Assembly (NCBI RefSeq): GCF_988242995.1
Contig: NZ_OZ547043.1
DNA length: 64,000 nucleotides
Direction: 5' to 3' (one strand)
The first letter of the stretch is position 1. Each line of letters begins with the position of its first letter. The notes under the pieces were generated by a model. That model was not told the origin of the DNA and did no database searches. It worked only from the letters and a program-made list of their open reading frames with translations. The position numbers and the translations under genes are program-made. Positions 12,908 to 59,531 of the stretch are shown here, piece after piece.

Positions 12908-15283
12908 TTAACGCATCCATTCACTCCCTTCAACACCATTGACCAGCAGCGTGCGTTTTTCTTCCACTGGTAATGACACTTTCAGTGCACTCCATGCAGG
13001 TCGATAATCCCCGCGCGCGTTGACTTTCAGGTTGATGGTCGCCCCATCGCAAACCATTTCCCATTCCACCCAAAGCGCATTACCAGTTTGGTAGCCCCAG
13101 CTTTCGCCATCGTCTTCAAACAGCAGGCCGGACGTTGTGCCCACACCTTTCAGCGGGAACAGTTTCAGTTCGCGGGTATCGTCTTGTTCTGCGCTCACAT
13201 AGGTGATGCGTTTGCTGAGCGGTAGACCAGCCCCGGCACGCACCATCAGCGGCAGTTTCTCCAGCGGTGCGTCGAGGGTGATCCACTGACCGCCACTGAA
13301 CCATTCGCCGTTGTAGAAATCGTACCAGCCAGTTTCGTTATCTGGCAGCCATACACGGCGCTGGCGCTCGCCTTGCTCTACGACGCTGGCAACCAAAATA
13401 TCGCGACCAAGCAGGAAGTCATCACACTCTTCAAAAGTCTGAACGTCGTGCTCGTGGTCAAGGAAAGTCGGACGTAGCATTGGTTCATCATCGGCGTATG
13501 CCTGCCACATCAGGGTATAAAAGTAGGGCAGCAGGCGATAGCGCAACTCAATAGCGCTGCGGATCGCCGGAGTGACGCCCGGATACATCCACGGTTCGTT
13601 TACGGTATGGTCATCGTTCCACGAGTGAATCGTAAAGCGCGGATGCATCACGCCGTTTTGTACCCAGCGTACAAACAGTTCCGGGTCCGGCTTATCACCG
13701 GAGAAACCGCCGACGTCGTGACCGAGGTTATACAGCCCGGAGAGGCTCATCCCCAGACCCATGCGGGTGTTGTAGCGCAGAGTGTCCCAGCTAGTGCGGT
13801 TATCGCCACTCCAGGTCTGCACGTAGCGCTGCATTCCCGCGCAGCCGGAGCGGGAGATCAAGTACGGACGTTTTTCCGGAGCGAAACGCTGCTGGGCTTC
13901 CATCGAGGCTCGCATCATCAGCAGTGGCATCACTGGGCGAATATGTTTGATCGCGATCGTCTGACCAAAGCCGTGACAGCGTGCTTCACCGTCCCATACT
14001 TCGAATTCGTTGTTGTCGTTCCAGGTGGAGTCGATACCCATCTCCAGAAGCTGTGTGGTCACGCCTTCCTGCCACCACTGGATGGTCTGCGGATTAGTAA
14101 AGTCGAGGTTAGAACCTTCGTCATCCCAGAAGCTGGAACGTTCTGGTTCATCTGTTTCTGAATCACGGATGAACAGTCCTCTTTCTGCCACTTCGTTATA
14201 GCGTGGGTGATCCTGCAACAGGCACGGCTTGATATTGGCGGCCAAGTGCAAACCAGCATTGTGAAATGCCTGGCTCATCACTTTCGGCTGCGGCACTTTG
14301 TCGTAATTCCAGTTGAACACATAGCGCTTGCCGTTAATTGAGGTATAACCGGAAGAGAGCTGGAACGAATCGCAGGGAATCGCATGTTCTTCACACAGGC
14401 GGATAAAGTTCATCAACTGATTTTGTGCGTCCGGCGCATCGGTGTAGTGCATAGTTGAACCGCTGTAGCCCAGGCTCCATTTCGGTCCGAACAGGGTTTT
14501 GCCGGTCAGGCGTACGAAGGCTTTGGTGATATCAAGTACGCGTTCGCCGGTAAACAGGTAGTAGTCGATATCACCCGCTTCCGCCTGCCAGCGGCGATAG
14601 GCGGTGTGGTAGTTGTCGATCTCGTTGCCCAGATCCAGCCAGCAGCTGCTGAGGTTGTCATAAAACAGGCCGAAGCTAACGTCATCGCGGCGGGTGATGG
14701 TGAATGGAATGTGTTTGTACAACGGGTCAGTACTAACGGCGTTGTAGCCCATCGCGTCGAGGTTACGCATCTCGTAACGTTTACCGTTGCGTTGCAGGTC
14801 GCCGGCTTTATCTCCGAGGCCATAAAAGCGTTCATCTTTACGACGGCTCTGATAGTGCGCCACGCCGTCGCCGTGGGCATTCAGCAGATAAGCGCTGGTC
14901 GGGCGGTCATTCACCAACGGCAGCCATTCGCCTTCGTTGTTACGATAGTGCCACTCCAGCCACAGCGGCTGGTGAACGGTGGCACGCAGTGACTCGGTGG
15001 CGATAACCACGGTGTCGTCGTGCTGGATCAATGTCCACGCGGGCAGGCTAAAGCCGCTGAGATCTTCGCGGCTGCGCCCTTCCCATGGCACATCCTGCGC
15101 CGGAGCAATGCTCCAGGTGCGATCCAGCGCCAGCTCGCCTTTGCGTTTTAACAGCACGCGGAACAGATTTTCTTCCAGCACGTACAGGCACAGGATATGC
15201 TGGCCATCGACCAGCAGTTCAACGTGGTGGGCAGACTGTTTGTGCAGGGTCCAGTTTTTCAGCGTTTTCATGTTTACATCCAT
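12908..15283 (-). CDS. Glycoside hydrolase family 31 alpha-glycosidase, cytoplasmic, substrate unknown
   Basis: 791-aa ORF with a GH31 nucleophile-region motif (GIDSTWNDNNEF, compare WIDMNE) and acid/base-region motif (VQTWSGDNRTSW). No signal peptide. Start may be the ATG at 15283 or 15271. Confidence 0.85.
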   Translation of the reverse strand: MDVNMKTLKNWTLHKQSAHHVELLVDGQHILCLYVLEENLFRVLLKRKGELALDRTWSIAPAQDVPWEGRSREDLSGFSLPAWTLIQHDDTVVIATESLRATVHQPLWLEWHYRNNEGEWLPLVNDRPTSAYLLNAHGDGVAHYQSRRKDERFYGLGDKAGDLQRNGKRYEMRNLDAMGYNAVSTDPLYKHIPFTITRRDDVSFGLFYDNLSSCWLDLGNEIDNYHTAYRRWQAEAGDIDYYLFTGERVLDITKAFVRLTGKTLFGPKWSLGYSGSTMHYTDAPDAQNQLMNFIRLCEEHAIPCDSFQLSSGYTSINGKRYVFNWNYDKVPQPKVMSQAFHNAGLHLAANIKPCLLQDHPRYNEVAERGLFIRDSETDEPERSSFWDDEGSNLDFTNPQTIQWWQEGVTTQLLEMGIDSTWNDNNEFEVWDGEARCHGFGQTIAIKHIRPVMPLLMMRASMEAQQRFAPEKRPYLISRSGCAGMQRYVQTWSGDNRTSWDTLRYNTRMGLGMSLSGLYNLGHDVGGFSGDKPDPELFVRWVQNGVMHPRFTIHSWNDDHTVNEPWMYPGVTPAIRSAIELRYRLLPYFYTLMWQAYADDEPMLRPTFLDHEHDVQTFEECDDFLLGRDILVASVVEQGERQRRVWLPDNETGWYDFYNGEWFSGGQWITLDAPLEKLPLMVRAGAGLPLSKRITYVSAEQDDTRELKLFPLKGVGTTSGLLFEDDGESWGYQTGNALWVEWEMVCDGATINLKVNARGDYRPAWSALKVSLPVEEKRTLLVNGVEGSEWMR

Positions 15284-15285
15284 TC

Positions 15286-16593
15286 TCAGGCGCGTTTTGC
15301 GCGACGTTCAGCAATAAAGGTGACCAGGAAGAAAGCACCAATCAGGTCAAAGAAGCCCATGGCGATAAACAGGGGGTTAAAGCCGATTTTGTCAGCGGTA
15401 ACCCCGATAATCAGGGAGAACAGGAAACTTGCGATCCACGCGGCAGAACCGCGCATGCCGTTAACAGTGGCCATCTGACCTTTGTCGAAGGATTCCACCA
15501 CCAGTGCGCTCAGCATGCAGGAGATGATCTGGTGACCGAAGCCGCCGATGGAAATAAGGACGATGGCGATATACGGGTTATTGGTAAAGGCCATCACCGC
15601 CAGCGAAACCATCAGGAATGCGCCACTGACCGATGATGCGACAACGGAGTTCACACGACTCAGCCCAAACAGGCGGGTGTAAAGTTTGGTCAGATAGCCG
15701 CTGGCAATACTGCCAAGATCAGCGGCGAGGAACGGCAACCAGGCGAATAATGCGATCTGCTTAAGGTCCATGCCATAGGTTTTGGACAGGTATAGCGGAA
15801 CCCAGAAACTCATCACCGCCCACGCCGGTTCTGCCATAAAGGCCGGGATAGCGATACCGTAAAAGCGTTTATTTTTGCCTACGGTTTTCAGTGCGGTCAG
15901 AAAGGGTAACTTGACAGGGGGCGCTTCGTTATCCTGGCGGATAAAGTCCAGCTCGGCTTTGCTGAGGTTAGGATGCTTATCCGGGTTGTGATAGAACGCC
16001 CACCACAGCACCACCCACAGCATCGCCAGGATGCCAGTGAACATAAATGCACCCTGCCAGCCGAATGAAGCGTGGGCAAAATAGATAATCGGTGGGGCCA
16101 GCATGGCACCGATGGAAAAACCGACGCCTGCCCAGCCTGCGGCGATCGGGCGTTCTGATTTTGGAAACCATTCACCGATGGTTTTGGCGTTTGCTGGGGT
16201 TGCCGCGGCTTCCGCACCGCCCATAAAGAAGCGCAACAGCGCCAGATGTACCCAGTTTCCCGCCCCCGCATGCATCAGACAGGCCAGCGCCCACAGTCCC
16301 GCGCAGATCATAAAGCCCAGTTTGAGGCCAATGACGTCAATCAGCCATCCACACAACGGTTGGAATAGGGTATAGGCGAGCTGGAAAGCACCTACAATCC
16401 AGGAATATTGTTCGGTGGTAATCCCCAGGCTGCTTTTCAGTTCGGGGGCGAGAATACCCAGCGAGTTACGCGTGATGTAGTTGACAGTAACACCGAGCAA
16501 AAAAAGGACCAGTATCCACCAACGCAGATTTTTGACGATATGGCGCGGTTTACTGGCAGTCATATCGTTATTGATACCCTGACTCATATGCAC
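15286..16593 (-). CDS. MFS transporter, anion:cation symporter (ACS) family-like
   Basis: 435-aa 12-TM-type ORF with an ACS-like N-terminal signature (RWWILVLFLLGVTVNYITRNSLGILAPE...). Its stop lies 2 nt upstream of the GH31 ATG, indicating an operon. Confidence 0.85.
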   Translation of the reverse strand: MHMSQGINNDMTASKPRHIVKNLRWWILVLFLLGVTVNYITRNSLGILAPELKSSLGITTEQYSWIVGAFQLAYTLFQPLCGWLIDVIGLKLGFMICAGLWALACLMHAGAGNWVHLALLRFFMGGAEAAATPANAKTIGEWFPKSERPIAAGWAGVGFSIGAMLAPPIIYFAHASFGWQGAFMFTGILAMLWVVLWWAFYHNPDKHPNLSKAELDFIRQDNEAPPVKLPFLTALKTVGKNKRFYGIAIPAFMAEPAWAVMSFWVPLYLSKTYGMDLKQIALFAWLPFLAADLGSIASGYLTKLYTRLFGLSRVNSVVASSVSGAFLMVSLAVMAFTNNPYIAIVLISIGGFGHQIISCMLSALVVESFDKGQMATVNGMRGSAAWIASFLFSLIIGVTADKIGFNPLFIAMGFFDLIGAFFLVTFIAERRAKRA

Positions 16594-16881
16594 TCCACAG
16601 AATGGTATAGGGTTTGTGCGGCAACGTCAGAATGGAGTTGTCACACCACTTTTAACTTTTTGATAAATAAAGTCTTTATTGTTCGTTTTTCCATTATTTT
16701 TGTATGGAAGTTGTTCTACCAATTCACAGTAAGAGACCCTAAAAGCGAAAGAAAGCGGGTTTTGTGCACGTTTTTCCATGAGTGACTGATATACATTACT
16801 GAAATGGATTTAATGCCAGACAGAATGGGCTTTTTTGCTCATGAAAATTCTGTCATTTCCGAATTAGAGGCAGATCACAAA

Positions 16882-17985
16882 ATGGACAAGAAGCTGAAAA
16901 TCGCCGATATCGCCGCACGTACCGGGCTATCGCCGAGTACGGTTTCGCGGGTGCTGGCTGGCAAAGCGAATACCAGTGCACGCGCTCGCGAACAGGTGCT
17001 GGCCTGCGCGCGTGAGTTGGGCGTGATGGATGGCATGGCAGCAGGTCGTATGTTGCTGAACAACCTGATTATTTTCGCGCCGCAACGCGCTTTTGACCAA
17101 CGATCTGATATCTTTTATTACCGTGTGATCCAGAGCATCAGCAAAGCGTTATCGCCGCATGAAGTGCGGCTGCGTTACTGCGCGCTGGAGGAGTTTGACA
17201 GCGATCCCGCGCTATTTCTCTCGCGGATGAATGAAGCAGATACGCAGGCGGCGATCCTGCTGGGGATTGACGATCCGCACATCCATGATCTGGCCGCCGA
17301 TCTCGCTAAGCCTTGTGTGCTGATCAACTGCCGTGATGAACGAATGCGCCTCCCGGCGATTGCGCCGGACCATCGGTTAATTGGCGCGTTCGCCGCCCGC
17401 TATCTGTTTGAAATGGGTCACCGGGAGGTGATGAATGTGATGTGCCTGCGCCGCTACACTATGGAGCAGCGGTTTGCAGGGATTAAAGAATCATGGCGTC
17501 AGCATAATCTGGCCTTTCACCATGACCGTCATTTGCTGAATATCAGCAGTTTTAGCGCTAAAGAAGCGGAAGAAAAGGTCGGAGCGTGGCTGGATGCCGC
17601 CAATGGCAAGACGTTGCCGACGGCGTTTCTGGTCGGCGGGGATTTTATGGCGGCGGGAACGGTAAATGCGCTACATCGTCGTGGTCTGCGCGTACCACAG
17701 GATGTCTCGGTGATGAGTATCGACGGCTTTAACCTTGCGGCAATCGAGGATGTTCCCCTGACGGCTGTGCATGTGCCACGCGATGAGCTAGGCAATGAAG
17801 CGGTGCAAATGTTGCAACAGCGGCTGATTCGCCCGGATGCTCCGGTGGGCTCGCTGCTGCTGCACGGACGATTGGCGGTGCGGGAGTCAGTGCGGCGGGT
17901 TCGCCCAGGAAAAGGGAACACCGCCGTGGAACGGGAAGGGCTGTACGACACTCAGCTGTCGATTCCCAACGCTCGCTTACCGTGA
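16882..17985 (+). CDS. LacI-family transcriptional regulator, divergent from the MFS-GH31 operon
   Basis: N-terminal HTH KIADIAARTGLSPSTVSRVL followed by a periplasmic-binding-protein-like sugar-binding core. Start chosen at MDKKLKIADI; upstream in-frame ATGs exist, so the start is uncertain. Confidence 0.8.
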   Translation: MDKKLKIADIAARTGLSPSTVSRVLAGKANTSARAREQVLACARELGVMDGMAAGRMLLNNLIIFAPQRAFDQRSDIFYYRVIQSISKALSPHEVRLRYCALEEFDSDPALFLSRMNEADTQAAILLGIDDPHIHDLAADLAKPCVLINCRDERMRLPAIAPDHRLIGAFAARYLFEMGHREVMNVMCLRRYTMEQRFAGIKESWRQHNLAFHHDRHLLNISSFSAKEAEEKVGAWLDAANGKTLPTAFLVGGDFMAAGTVNALHRRGLRVPQDVSVMSIDGFNLAAIEDVPLTAVHVPRDELGNEAVQMLQQRLIRPDAPVGSLLLHGRLAVRESVRRVRPGKGNTAVEREGLYDTQLSIPNARLP

Positions 17986-19217: not shown

Positions 19218-19326
19218 AACCACCTCGCATTAACTTTCATTCGAAACTATAATGATTTGCATGTGACAATATAAGTTATAAATAAGTTAATGCAAGTTTA
19301 ATGATTTGATGTGATGTACAGGATGT

Positions 19327-19368: not shown

Positions 19369-20184
19369 TCAGCTGTTAAAAGGGGATGTATTATCCAGCA
19401 CCGCCTGAATCACATTCAGCGCGCCTTCATGATTATTATCATCGGTAGCGTAACGGGCGATTTGTTTAATGTTTTCCGCAGCATTGCCCATCGCAAAGGA
19501 ATAACGCGCCATTTTCAGCATCTCCGCATCGTTACCGCTGTCGCCAATCGCTACCACATTTTGCGGCGACAGATCCCAGCGTTTCAGTAACCGCGAAATA
19601 CCATTCGCTTTATGCAGGCCAGGAATAATCAGGTCGATAAAGCCAAAACCACTGGTGACGGGTTTCATAATGCCATCCAGCGCTATGTGCAGTTTGTCGA
19701 TCACTAACGGGATTTGTTCATCCGGCAGGTTGAGCGAAAACTTGAACAGTACGTCGTCAATCTCCTGATAATCTTTTACAGGTTTCAGGCGATGGTAGTG
19801 TTTTGCCATCAGTGCGACGAATGCTTCGGGGGCATTTTCGCTGACATATGCACTTTGCAGACCGCAGGCGACAAAATTGAGTTGCTTATCTTTTAGCAAC
19901 TCGCCAATTACAATCCGCGATTCATGTCGGGTCAGTTCGCCGTGGAACAGTTGCTTGCCATGTTCGTAAACCAGTGCGCCGTTTTCCGCGACAAAAGAGA
20001 TCTCATCCTTTAGCTCAGGAAAGAATGAAATAAGCTGGTAATACTGATTACCGCTGGCGACAACGAACTCAATGCCGCGCTTTTTCAGTTCCTGATATTG
20101 CGCCATAAAACGTGGTTGGTTGTACGTTTTGGCGTCGTTAAGAAAAGTACCGTCCATGTCTGTGACGATAACTTTTACGCTCAT
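19369..20184 (-). CDS. ybiV: Sugar phosphatase, HAD superfamily (Cof-type)
   Basis: 271-aa ORF with the HAD motif VTDMDGTFL near the N-terminus; matches YbiV. A paralogue, ybjI, is also in this window. Confidence 0.9.
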
Positions 20185-20329: not shown

Positions 20330-22762
20330 TTACAGCATATGTTCAGTACGGGCGATGATATCGTCCTGTGCGTCTGGAGAGAGCGCGGTGAAGAAGGCGG
20401 AATAGCCCGCGACGCGCACTACCAGATCGCGATACTGATCGGGATGTTTTTTCGCCTCCAGCAGCGTTTCGCGGGAAACGATGTTGTACTGAATATGCCA
20501 GCCTTTATGCACCTCGAAGAAGGTGCGCAGCAGGATCATCAGTTTCTGCTTGTCAGATTCGTTCTCCAGTGTTGCTGGATTCAGTTTCTGGTTGAGCAAC
20601 ACGCCGCCGAGAATCGCTGCCGTAGGCAGTTTACCCACCGAGCCAATGACCGCAGTAGGGCCAAGATGATCAGTACCGGAAGCCGGGCTTGCGCCTTCTG
20701 CCAGCGGGGTGTGGGCTTTACGCCCGTCCGGTGTTGCCATAGTCTGCGCGCCAAACGGTACGTTAGCGGAGATAGACGACGTACCCGCGTAATAGTTGCC
20801 GCCAACCGGACCACGACCGTAGCGTGGGTTATGGTACTGTTTCAGTTCGTCGATATAGGTCTGATAAGCGCGAGCCAGCAGCGTATCGACGGTATCATCG
20901 TCGTTGCCGTACTTCGGCGCACCGTTAATCAGCCGCTGACGCAGTTGCTCATGAGTCAGGCCATCGAAGTCATCCGCCAGTGCGGCAGCCAGCTGTTGCT
21001 GACCAATCGCGCCCTGTTCAAACACCAGTTTCCTCACTGCCGCCAGGCTGTTGCCAAGGTTGGCAATGCCGACCTGCAGGCCAGAAACCCAGTCATATTT
21101 CGCGCCGCCTTGCTTGATACTTTTTGCTCGCTCAATACAGTCATCCACCAGCGCCGAGCAGAGAATATCGTGCACGTTCTCCTCCAGCATGGTGTCAACG
21201 ACATATTCGATTTCGATTGATTTGCGGGTGTAGTAACGGATTTGCGTGTCCCACGCGTCCATTACTTCATCGAAATTGTTAAAGTTACCTGCCGACAACG
21301 CTTTTTCTTGTGGCAGGAACACTTTGCCGCTGGTGGCATCACGACCGCCTTCCAGCGCCGCCAGCATCACACGGGCGAAGTTGATAAAGCTCATGCCGGT
21401 ACAGCGATAGCCCCATTTGCCACCGACGGCGGTTTCGATACAACCAATCGCTGCATAGTCGTAAGCGTCCTGCGGTTCAATACCGAGTTTAATAAATTCC
21501 GGGATCACGATTTCGTCGTTGTTGAACGCCGGCATCCCGAAGCCGCAACGGATCACCTGTACGCAGGCGTCGAGGAAATCGTTGCTCATTCCTGCATGGT
21601 AACGCACGCTGAGGTTAGGCTGAGTGGAACGCAGGCGACCGCAGGATTCGAGGATCGCGTAAGAGAGGGGATTCACCGCGTCCATTGGTTGACCATCAAC
21701 CAGATTTTGCCCGCCAATAGTGACGTTCTGATACAGCGGACTTCCCGCAGAGGCTTTCGAGTGCGAGCCGGAGCGGATTTTGTTCACTTCCAGCAGTTTC
21801 AACCAGCAGCTATGCAGCATCTCGATGGCGTGTTCGCGATCCAGTGTCTGGTTCAGTTCAACGTCGCGGCGATAGTACGGGTAGAGATACTGGTCCATAC
21901 GACCAAACGATACCGAGTGACCGTTAGATTCGATCTGCAATATCAACTGGATGAAGTAACACAGTTGCAGCGCCTGCCAGAAAGTCTGCGGCGGCTGGTG
22001 GGCGATAAGATCGCAGTTTTCTGCCATCGCCAGCAGTTCATCGCGACGGCTTTCGCGGGTTTCGGTCGCGGCCATTTCACGCGCCAGGGCAGCGAAACGT
22101 TCAATGTGTTCACTGACTGCTACCAGCACGATATCAATCGCTTTCAGGAATTGCTCACCGTGTAAATCTTCCAGCACCGTCAGGTTGATGCGCGAGCGAC
22201 GTTCCGCTACTTTCTCGCGCAGACCATCAAGCCCTTTTTCCAGCAGCAGCGGGAAATTGACCGCCAGGTGCGCATCGCCGGAGGTCATATTGCCTTCCGC
22301 TTTAATGATGCCGGTCGCCAGCAGACCTTTTTGCTCATCGGTAAACATGCCGTAGCAGCGATCCTGTACGGTCTGACCGCGCCACCAAGGGCACACTTCA
22401 TGCAGAACACGTTTGTTCTCTTCGCTCACCGCAAAACCAGCACCGGGACGATCTGCCAGATCATCAATCTCTTTTTCGATCCACGAGACGGTATATTCCG
22501 GGAAGATCGGCGCGGCGCGAACTTCGCTTGCCTGGTTGCCAATGATCAACTCATCGTGCTTGATCCAGATAGTGCGATTCGCCAGGTGATGCGCCAGCGC
22601 CAGCGCGCGACGTACCGGGATCGGCTTATCGAGATGTTGTTGATACATCTCAGTATAGTGCTGCGCGCGCTCGGTACAGACCGGCGGTTTCACAATATGC
22701 ACCAGCGCATTTTTGTGCGCTTTAATGCGGTCGCTGAGCGTGTCCAGTTTCAGTGTGGTCAT
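20330..22762 (-). CDS. ybiW: Glycyl radical enzyme (pyruvate formate-lyase-like), substrate unknown
   Basis: 810-aa ORF with the C-terminal glycyl-radical motif RVAGYSAFF; matches YbiW (PflF). Confidence 0.95.
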
Positions 22763-22767
22763 GGTTG

Positions 22768-23667
22768 TTATCCTCGTAAGGTCGCGGTTAACCCTTTCTG
22801 GCAGGCATACTGCTGGGCAAAGTCGAGCAGTTCTGGCGCATCAAGCGGTTTTTCCGGGGCGTCATAGGGCAGATTAAGTAAGTGATATTTGTTGATGCCC
22901 AGCGTGTGGTAGGGCAGGAAATGAATTTCGCCAACGTGCAGCTCGTCGGCGGCAAAATCGGTAATGGCTTTTACAGAGGTTTCGTCGGCATTAAAGCCCT
23001 GAATCAGCGGCACGCGGATAATGATTTTTTTGCCCGCTGCGGCGAGTTTTTTCAGGTTATCCAGCACTCTGGCGGCGTTACCGTCGGTCCACTGTTTAAA
23101 CGGCGCGTCGGCAACGTGTTTTAAATCGGCAAGAAACAGATCGATATAGGGCAGAGAAGGGGCGATATATTTCCACGGCACATGCAGACAGGTTTCTACC
23201 GCAGTATGAATACCTGCCTCGTGGCTGGCTTGCAGTAGCGCCATCGCCATTTCCGGCTGCATAAACGGTTCACCGCCAGAAAGCGTTAAGCCGCCGCCAC
23301 TGCGATCGTAAAACGGTTTATCGCGCAGAACGGTCGCCATGATCTCCTCAACGCTTTTCACTTCACCACACACGGTTAACGCCTGTGTCGGGCAGCAGTC
23401 GGTTAGCGCCGTCAGATGCTCCGGGGTTAACTTTTCCCGATGAATAAGCAAACCATTCAACGCGCGCTCAATCACGTCCGGCGCGGCCTTAGCGCACAGC
23501 TCGCAGCCTTCCAGACAGAGTCGTGGGTCATACAGCAGATCCTGCGTGCGGGCGCGGCTTTCCGGGTTCTGACACCAGCGGCAGCCCAGCGAACAGCCTT
23601 TAAGAAATACGACCGTGCGGATACCGGGGCCATCATGGGTCGAGTAGCGCTGAATATTGAAAATCAT
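22768..23667 (-). CDS. ybiY: Glycyl-radical-enzyme activating enzyme (radical SAM)
   Basis: CxxxCxxC radical-SAM motif (CSLGCRWC) plus a second Cys-rich cluster; start taken at [18 protein letters not shown] (299 aa). The track ORF extends 9 codons upstream. Confidence 0.9.
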
Positions 23668-23720
23668 AGTTGCCTCTCTGTTTCGTTCAAACATTAAAAT
23701 ACTTTCGAATGAAAGTTAGA

Positions 23721-23734
23721 TTGATGTACGTCAA
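23721..23734. promoter_or_regulatory. FNR/CRP-family half-site dyad TTGAT-GTAC-GTCAA in the divergent ybiY/fsaA region
   Basis: 9 of 10 matches to the FNR consensus TTGAT-N4-ATCAA, centred about 60 bp upstream of the ybiY ATG and about 70 bp upstream of the fsaA ATG. Anaerobic control would fit a glycyl radical enzyme operon. Confidence 0.45.
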
Positions 23735-23797
23735 CTGTTCAGAGAGTTTTCCCGTGATAGTCTACATTCAGACAAAAAGTACATTTTGAGGATGGTT

Positions 23798-24460
23798 ATG
23801 GAACTGTATCTGGATACTTCAGACGTTGTTGCGGTGAAGGTGCTGTCACGTATTTTTCCGCTGGCGGGTGTGACCACTAACCCAAGCATTATCGCCTCGG
23901 GTAAAAAACCGCTGGAGGTTGTGCTTCCGCAACTTCACGAGGCGATGGGCGGTCAGGGGCGTCTGTTTGCCCAGGTAATGGCTACCACTGCTGAAGGGAT
24001 GGTGAATGACGCACGTAAATTGCGTTCTATTATTGCGGATATCGTGGTGAAAGTTCCTGTGACCGCTGAGGGGCTGGCAGCTATTAAGATGTTAAAAGCG
24101 GAAGGGATTCCGACGCTGGGAACCGCGGTATATGGCGCGGCACAAGGGCTGCTGTCGGCGCTGGCAGGTGCGGAATATGTTGCGCCTTACGTCAACCGTA
24201 TTGATGCTCAGGGCGGTTGCGGTATTCAGACTGTGACCGACTTACACCAGTTATTGAAAATGCATGCGCCGCAGGCGAAAGTGCTGGCAGCGAGTTTCAA
24301 AACCCCGCGTCAGGCTCTGGACTGCTTACTGGCAGGATGTGAATCAATTACTCTGCCGCTGGATGTGGCACAACAGATGATTAGCTATCCGGCGGTTGAT
24401 GCCGCAGTGGCGAAGTTTGAGCAGGACTGGCAGGGAGCGTTTGGCAGAACGTCGATTTAA
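23798..24460 (+). CDS. fsaA: Fructose-6-phosphate aldolase 1
   Basis: [14 protein letters not shown]... 220 aa, transaldolase-like fold family; matches FsaA. Confidence 0.9.
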
Positions 24461-59042: not shown

Positions 59043-59531
59043 ATGGAAGACGAAACGTTGGGATTTTTTAAGAAAACATCTTCATCTCATGCTCGCCTGA
59101 ATGTGCCTGCGCTGGTGCAGGTGGCGGCGCTCGCCATTATTATGATCCGTGGCCTCGACGTGCTGATGATTTTCAATACGCTGGGCGTGCGCGGTATTGG
59201 CGAGTTCATTCATCGCAGCGTACAAACCTGGAGTCTAACGCTGGTCTTTTTAAGCAGTCTGGTGTTGGTTTTTATTGAGATCTGGTGTGCGTTTTCACTG
59301 GTGAAAGGGCGTCGCTGGGCGCGCTGGCTGTATCTGTTGACACAAATCACGGCCGCAAGTTACTTGTGGGCGGCTTCGCTGGGGTATGGTTATCCGGAGC
59401 TGTTCAGCATTCCCGGTGAATCAAAACGTGAAATCTTCCATAGCCTGATGCTGCAGAAGCTGCCGGATATGCTCATCCTGATGCTGCTGTTCGTTCCCTC
59501 GACCAGTCGGCGGTTCTTCCAGTTGCAATAA
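59043..59531 (+). CDS. ybjO: Inner membrane protein
   Basis: 162-aa hydrophobic ORF; matches YbjO. Confidence 0.85.
   Translation: MEDETLGFFKKTSSSHARLNVPALVQVAALAIIMIRGLDVLMIFNTLGVRGIGEFIHRSVQTWSLTLVFLSSLVLVFIEIWCAFSLVKGRRWARWLYLLTQITAASYLWAASLGYGYPELFSIPGESKREIFHSLMLQKLPDMLILMLLFVPSTSRRFFQLQ

Follow-up and report, generated by a model that had tools for sequence, protein, structure and literature searches.

The ybiY-fsaA region and its FNR site

We analyzed a 64,000-nucleotide stretch of contig NZ_OZ547043.1 (NCBI RefSeq assembly GCF_988242995.1), referred to here as the window, in which ybiW and ybiY are followed by a 130-bp spacer, the divergent gene fsaA, and then moeB and moeA (Table 1). 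The window is E. coli DNA: over 701 bases around the site in the spacer, the sequence is 100% identical to that of strain NY1601, and 5425 of 5426 complete genomes match it at 90% identity or more. Elsewhere in the window, a three-gene insert between ybiT and ybiU (12908-17985) encodes a glycoside hydrolase of family 31, an MFS transporter and a LacI-family regulator, and the gene of this regulator shares 34 bp with the 3' end of ybiU. K-12 is without this insert, which occurs in 577 of the 5426 complete E. coli genomes.

The ybiW and ybiY genes were long without an assigned function, and PMC12441222 now describes them as an oxygen-sensitive pair for the fermentation of 1,5-anhydroglucitol by gut Enterobacteriaceae. 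According to the same source, which cites Ma et al., YbiW converts 1,5-anhydroglucitol-6-phosphate to 1-deoxyfructose-6-phosphate under strict anaerobiosis only. Other glycyl-radical loci (focA-pflB, yfiD and nrdD) have ChIP-bound FNR sites in Table S6 of Myers 2013 (PMC3688515), and the paralogous ptsA-fsaB-gldA operon is listed as FNR-activated in that study. The strictly anaerobic reaction of YbiW and the FNR sites of the other glycyl-radical loci agree with the proposal of an earlier reading of the letters alone (the sequence-only reading) that anaerobic induction of ybiYW would be biologically coherent.

Table 1. Coordinates of the genes and sequence elements of the ybiYW-fsaA locus in the window
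Feature	Position	Strand	Basis or remark
ybiW (pflF), glycyl radical enzyme	20330-22762	-	RefSeq annotation; reported 1,5-anhydroglucitol-6-phosphate dehydratase (PMC12441222)
ybiY (pflE), glycyl-radical enzyme activase, 299 aa	22768-23667	-	RefSeq annotation of 100% identical strain and K-12
Shine-Dalgarno GAGG of ybiY	23673-23676	-	kept 5-9 nt before ATG
Conserved block TTTGAACGAAAC (E. coli; CTTyATAyGmAA elsewhere)	23680-23691	-	81-sequence alignment; around the predicted start
Candidate -10 hexamer TTTAAT of ybiYW	23693-23698	-	conserved spacing to FNR center
Palindrome ACTTTC-N4-GAAAGT	23701-23716	.	at -30 to -15 of the putative ybiY promoter; probable YciT (DeoR-type) operator
FNR binding site TTGATGTACGTCAA	23721-23734	.	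center 23727.5; sequence, weight matrix, K-12 ChIP-seq, conservation
Candidate extended -10 TGaTAGTCT of fsaA	23755-23763	+	TG 23755-23756, TAGTCT 23758-23763; implied start ~23770
fsaA	23798-24460	+	RefSeq annotation
Second palindrome copy AGTTTCGAATGAAAGT (ybiU orientation)	19233-19248	.	16-31 bp upstream of annotated ybiU ATG (19217)

The sequence-only reading had reported TTGAT-GTAC-GTCAA at 23721-23734, and direct inspection of the letters confirmed both the position of TTGATGTACGTCAA and its agreement with the consensus TTGAT-N4-ATCAA at nine of ten positions. Its center was said to lie about 60 bp from the ybiY start and about 70 bp from fsaA; we measured 60.5 bp to the ybiY ATG (23667, minus strand) and 70.5 bp to the fsaA ATG (23798). 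Simple counting of consensus matches was discarded as proof beyond chance: four matches with at most one mismatch were found in the 64-kb window against 2.44 expected, and 20 of 100 shuffled sequences gave at least four. We relied instead on simulations and on a symmetrized FNR weight matrix built from 62 ChIP-bound sites in Table S6 of Myers 2013, with the present site left out.

Scoring with such a matrix, a check proposed in the sequence-only reading, gave 17.97 bits for TTGATGTACGTCAA, the top score of the window (the runner-up reached 13.24) and above that of 52 of the 62 training sites. A score of 17.97 bits was reached anywhere in only 2% of simulated 64-kb sequences, which puts the chance of such a match inside the 130-bp ybiY-fsaA spacer at about 4e-5. 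The orthologous K-12 site, TTGATGTGCGTCAA, is located at NC_000913.3 863565-863578 (U00096.2 862788); it has identical half-sites and differs by one spacer base. With the spacer GTAC (window 23727-23730) in place of the GTGC of K-12, the matrix score is 17.97 rather than 15.68 bits. The next matches in the window, TTGACACAAATCAC at 59337-59350 (13.24 bits) and TTGATAAAGCTCAT at 21381-21394 inside ybiW (12.37 bits), score below most ChIP-bound FNR sites.

Conservation of the site and predicted promoter geometry on the ybiY side

We compared the locus in one genome per species, which gave 80 loci from about 25 genera of Enterobacteriaceae with YbiY proteins of 76-97% identity, and an alignment of 81 sequences. 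A TTGAY-N4-RTCAA site scoring 13.1-20.3 bits was present in all 80 loci, centered 60.5-65.5 bp upstream of the ybiY ATG. All 81 aligned sequences carry the TTGA and TCAA cores unchanged, with C or T at position 5 and A or G at position 10, and among them are 34 distinct 14-mers and 23 distinct spacers. Invariant half-sites around a drifting spacer would be the pattern expected of a dimeric protein that reads two half-sites. The 14-mer is a genuine and strongly conserved FNR site, ordinary and well formed.

The divergent fsaA is found upstream in 64 of the loci, with its ATG 65.5-77.5 bp from the center of the site, or 165.5 bp in one case. The other 16 loci, which include those of Klebsiella, Raoultella, Salmonella arizonae and diarizonae, Trabulsiella and Phytobacter, are without a divergent fsaA upstream and still hold the distance from the site to ybiY, which places the primary constraint on the ybiY side. 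A local regulator gene was sought upstream of ybiY in Klebsiella; in K. pneumoniae, the two open reading frames there correspond by length and orientation to moeA and moeB. The exceptional distance of 165.5 bp belongs to Citrobacter amalonaticus, where the ybiY-fsaA spacer is 227 bp long compared to the usual length of about 130 bp; the site of this species lies 62.5 bp from ybiY, so that the ybiY distance is kept and an insertion on the fsaA side is indicated.

From the site toward the ybiY ATG, the alignment shows three or four variable bases, then AACTTTCATTCGAAAGT and ATTTAAT, both near-invariant, then a further conserved block (about 12 bp) and finally the Shine-Dalgarno sequence. In 77 of the 81 sequences, the distance from the FNR center to the first base of a TT[TA]A[AC]T hexamer is exactly 29.5 bp. 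Reading TTTAAT as positions -12 to -7 would put FNR at -41.5 and the transcription start near 23686 with a 19-nt leader, a placement that is well supported but not proven. The hexamer is without the usual A at -11, and the overlapping TATTTT (23696-23701) and TAATGT (23691-23696) would instead place the site at -38.5 and -43.5, respectively. By this geometry the FNR site would span -48 to -35, where a sigma-70 scan found no -35/-10 pair. The conserved Shine-Dalgarno sequence argues for a leadered ybiY mRNA; together with the hexamer at 29.5 bp, it lends support to the suggestion in the sequence-only reading that the distance suits a class II promoter with a short leader.

The ybiY frame is also open further upstream, to an ATG at 23694 (308 aa; window 23668-23694) that lies inside the putative promoter. 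Upstream of the ATG at 23667 the region looks non-coding in other genera, and the conserved start is the one that gives 299 aa and is preceded by GAGG. The block at 23680-23691 reads CTTTATACGAAAG in Citrobacter and CTTCATATGCAAG in Enterobacter, and in some genera it resembles a loose, degenerate copy of the neighboring palindrome. An RNA element in the ybiY-fsaA spacer was also considered and rejected, as the only Rfam match was U6 with E = 0.11, far short of the threshold.

FNR occupancy, YciT and expression of ybiY

A look at FNR ChIP data, also proposed in the sequence-only reading, showed that the orthologous K-12 site lies under a published FNR ChIP-seq peak. Table S5 of Myers 2013 (PMC3688515) gives the peak at 862807 (ybiY/fsaA), called by MOSAiCS, NCIS and CisGenome. 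Table S6 of the same study gives the site itself (862788, TTGATGTGCGTCAA, ybiY/fsaA) with a PatSer score of 14.54 and an ln p of -13.06, and Fis, H-NS and IHF do not overlap it. The peak is absent from the ChIP-chip column of that study and from the 2007 ChIP-chip study, and the rows listed from Table S1 hold no entry for sigma-70 occupancy at the position of the site. Binding of FNR at this site has therefore been in the literature since 2013, and our result is mostly a confirmation of it.

The palindrome on the ybiY side of the FNR site is near-invariant, and its center lies exactly 19 bp from the FNR center in 78 of the 81 sequences. The second copy, in front of ybiU, is identical to the first at 17 of 18 positions, the non-palindromic center included, and overlaps a TATAGT -10-like hexamer. 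Gao et al. 2021 (PMC8464067) assigned YciT ChIP-exo peaks to ybiY and ybiV with signal-to-noise ratios of 45 and 24, the two highest among the YciT peaks listed in the accessible part of that paper. In their aerated yciT mutant, the log2 rise was 7.7 for ybiY, 7.0 for ybiU, 3.5 for ybiW and 1.8 for fsaA, ybiY and ybiU being the two most derepressed genes, with a very low baseMean of 23.6 for ybiY versus 6488 for ybiU. The gene most strongly expressed on deletion of yciT was ybiU. On this evidence, the palindrome at 23701-23716 is probably a YciT operator, and the ybiU copy is likely the YciT operator of a separate ybiU promoter.

The positions of the ChIP-exo peaks (NC_000913.2 862873-862900 and 858455-858488) fit poorly with the palindrome as the operator: they correspond to window 23806-23833 and 19388-19421, in the 5' end of fsaA and the 3' end of ybiV, with centers 111 and 164 bp from the palindromes. 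CTGGATA and TTCAGnCGnTG occur in both peak stretches, perhaps by chance. A 20-nt direct repeat (23738-23757 and 23818-23837; TTCAGAGAGTTTTCCCGTGA and TTCAGACGTTGTTGCGGTGA, 70% identity) was set aside as probably fortuitous since it is not conserved beyond Escherichia; its copies lie 80 bp from each other; the FNR site and the fsaA -10 flank the first, and the second is under a YciT ChIP-exo peak.

Table S9 of Myers 2013 (PMC3688515) names ybiY as the estimated target of the FNR peak, lists its regulators and start sites as none known, and records no fnr-dependent expression change for it in K-12 grown anaerobically in minimal medium with glucose. In Shigella flexneri M90T, ybiY was placed in the anaerobic FNR regulon by FRT-seq (log2 -2.49 in fnr versus wild type, a 5.6-fold drop), and the same effect was not significant by standard RNA-seq. 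A full-text literature search that paired ybiY or fsaA with FNR gave nothing relevant.

The Reg-Seq preprint (bioRxiv 10.1101/2025.05.13.653802) reports that the ybiY promoter was active solely in anaerobic cultures, with or without nitrate, that YciT was pulled down on this promoter by mass spectrometry, and that an activator footprint lies 'around -20' relative to a computationally predicted start. The activator is left unnamed there and FNR is never mentioned; the pull-down lysate came from aerobic cells and so could not contain active FNR. According to the preprint, the YciT site of Gao et al. is 'about 100 bases' upstream of the YciT site found by Reg-Seq. By this approximate mapping of the '-5' and '-20' of Reg-Seq, the Reg-Seq YciT site would fall near the palindrome and the activator footprint on or beside the FNR site, which suggests FNR as a candidate for the unnamed activator of ybiYp.

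The claim that ybiY depends on FNR is supported in part. The Shigella FRT-seq result and the anaerobic-only activity in Reg-Seq speak for it, and the K-12 glucose data, in which expression did not change, speak against it. The sequence-only reading had itself named the lack of FNR dependence as contrary evidence, and this is what the glucose data show unless repression by YciT explains them. The derepression of ybiY in the aerated yciT mutant (Gao 2021, PMC8464067) also indicates that FNR is not strictly required.

Interpretation and relation to known systems

We consider it likely that FNR acts through the 14-mer, which would be a functional operator and serve an anaerobic ybiY-ybiW promoter of class II type as its activator site; the geometry of this promoter is predicted from the conserved spacing. 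The reading that competes best overlaps with this one and holds that a single FNR dimer works in both directions, activating fsaA as much as ybiYW, or mainly fsaA. In 58 of the 64 fsaA-bearing loci, the hexamer of a TGnTAnnnT element has its first base 30.5 bp from the FNR center, and the block is missing in loci without fsaA. This conserved extended -10 would place the FNR dimer at about -42.5 for fsaA, and the remark in the sequence-only reading that the site also lies upstream of the divergent gene holds. The regulation of fsaA by YciT, seen in the yciT mutant, is in keeping with two-way use. Ma et al. 2024 reportedly found that FsaA cleaves the 1-deoxyfructose-6-phosphate made by YbiW, which counts for the same reading. 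Against it, the 16 loci that are without fsaA still have the site at its distance to ybiY, the spacing to the fsaA ATG is variable as described above, the target estimated by Myers 2013 was ybiY, and the searchable tables hold no report of fsaA as an fnr-dependent gene. Simultaneous occupation of both class II positions by polymerase would also be impossible. We regard two-way use as quite possible, if somewhat short of probable.

Much less likely is that FNR binds here silently or opportunistically, without regulatory consequence, as in Category 5 of Myers 2013. The absence of an fnr-dependent change in K-12 glucose medium would fit such a site, and many FNR ChIP peaks of that study are likewise without an expression correlate (PMC3688515). 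A silent site is difficult to reconcile with the conservation, as the eight contact bases and the 29.5-bp spacing to the hexamer are fixed over about 25 genera in which the spacer drifts, or with the anaerobic-only promoter activity and the fnr effect in Shigella.

A different geometry, in which FNR at about -61.5 would be a class I activator for a start that coincides with the ATG or lies close to it, or else a repressor, is in our view very unlikely. The distance of 60.5-63.5 bp from center to ATG is numerically near -61.5, and the sole match of the simple sigma-70 promoter scan was TTGAAC-16-TATGAT over the ybiY start codon. We rejected this match: genera other than Escherichia do not conserve it, and the start it implies would fall within the gene. 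The leader implied by the conserved Shine-Dalgarno sequence and the conserved ATTTAAT block at the class II distance also argue against the class I arrangement.

TTGA and TCAA cores distinguish FNR sites from those of CRP, and it is hardly credible that the site is read by CRP or by YeiL, a third member of the CRP/FNR family, or that its TTGAC half is a -35 hexamer. In favor of these readings are the kinship of the CRP and FNR inverted repeats and the likeness of TTGACG to TTGACA. Against them, the agreement with TGTGA-N6-TCACA is only 6 of 10, the two halves are TTGA and TCAA in all 81 sequences and never GTGA and TCAC, FNR itself was cross-linked here in K-12, and neither TTGA(C/T) hexamer is followed at 16-18 bp by an acceptable -10.

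Returning to the class II-type reading, we propose that in anaerobiosis dimeric [4Fe-4S]-FNR would bind at about -41.5 and recruit RNA polymerase to the weak TTTAAT -10, which is without a -35, so that transcription would begin near 23686 and leave a leader of about 19 nt. YciT at the palindrome (-30 to -15) may block polymerase while FNR stays bound, which would explain the Myers peak without an fnr effect in glucose medium. The operon would then fire only when oxygen is absent and YciT has been released, presumably by a sugar phosphate of the pathway, in the manner of an AND gate. The same FNR dimer would probably also aid the divergent fsaA promoter, with its site at about -42.5. Occupancy in K-12 in vivo, the conserved half-sites and spacing, and the anaerobic-only reporter activity are observed, and we infer the remaining mechanism. 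More tentatively, we suggest the full combination of a natural, almost symmetrically placed bidirectional class II FNR activator serving both arms of the radical 1,5-anhydroglucitol pathway (dehydratase plus activase, and aldolase), a YciT gate that adds substrate to oxygen as an input, and FNR as the Reg-Seq activator.

The pieces of this arrangement come from FNR ChIP-seq in 2013, YciT ChIP-exo in 2021 and Reg-Seq in 2025-26, and the accessible parts of these three sources do not join them. What we add is the footprint over 80 genomes, the fixed -10 spacing on both sides, the probable YciT operator, and the suggestion of FNR as the Reg-Seq activator. Together they give one simple, testable arrangement, with FNR at about -41.5, the YciT operator at -30 to -15 and the FNR site shared by a divergent fsaA promoter, which could explain why the FNR peak is 'silent' and which protein the unnamed activator may be. 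This is an assignment of regulators to a promoter, not a new kind of element, and leaves the knowledge of FNR unchanged.

Like the class II FNR promoters of nirB, narG, dmsA, pflB P6, nrdD and yfiD, the putative ybiYW promoter has a TTGAT-N4-ATCAA-type repeat in place of a -35, a hexamer 29.5 bp from its center (predicted -41.5) and an oxygen-sensitive, anaerobic target. Unlike them, its start is a predicted one, its -10 is without the A at -11, a second near-invariant operator lies at -30 to -15, and K-12 in glucose medium showed no effect of fnr. The combination of a ybiY peak without expression change and a documented repressor resembles Category 4 of Myers 2013, for example feoABC, where Fur masks FNR. 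The repressor here would be YciT rather than Fur, and ybiY/fsaA was filed in Category 5 with its regulators as 'unknown', a placement we attribute to YciT having been characterized only in 2021.

Divergent promoters activated from a single dimer of the CRP family were reportedly the subject of a systematic CRP study by El-Robh and Busby in 2002. The ybiY-fsaA spacer is similar in having one dimer between two -10 elements, at about -41.5 and about -42.5, and differs in that the dimer is FNR rather than CRP, the arrangement is natural rather than engineered, and activation in both directions is putative. A further likeness is to the Reg-Seq model of ybiYp, which concerns the same promoter and has the same anaerobic-only activity, YciT as repressor and an activator footprint beside the YciT site. 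The two differ in that the activator is named here, by inference, as FNR, and that the Reg-Seq positions are relative to a predicted start.
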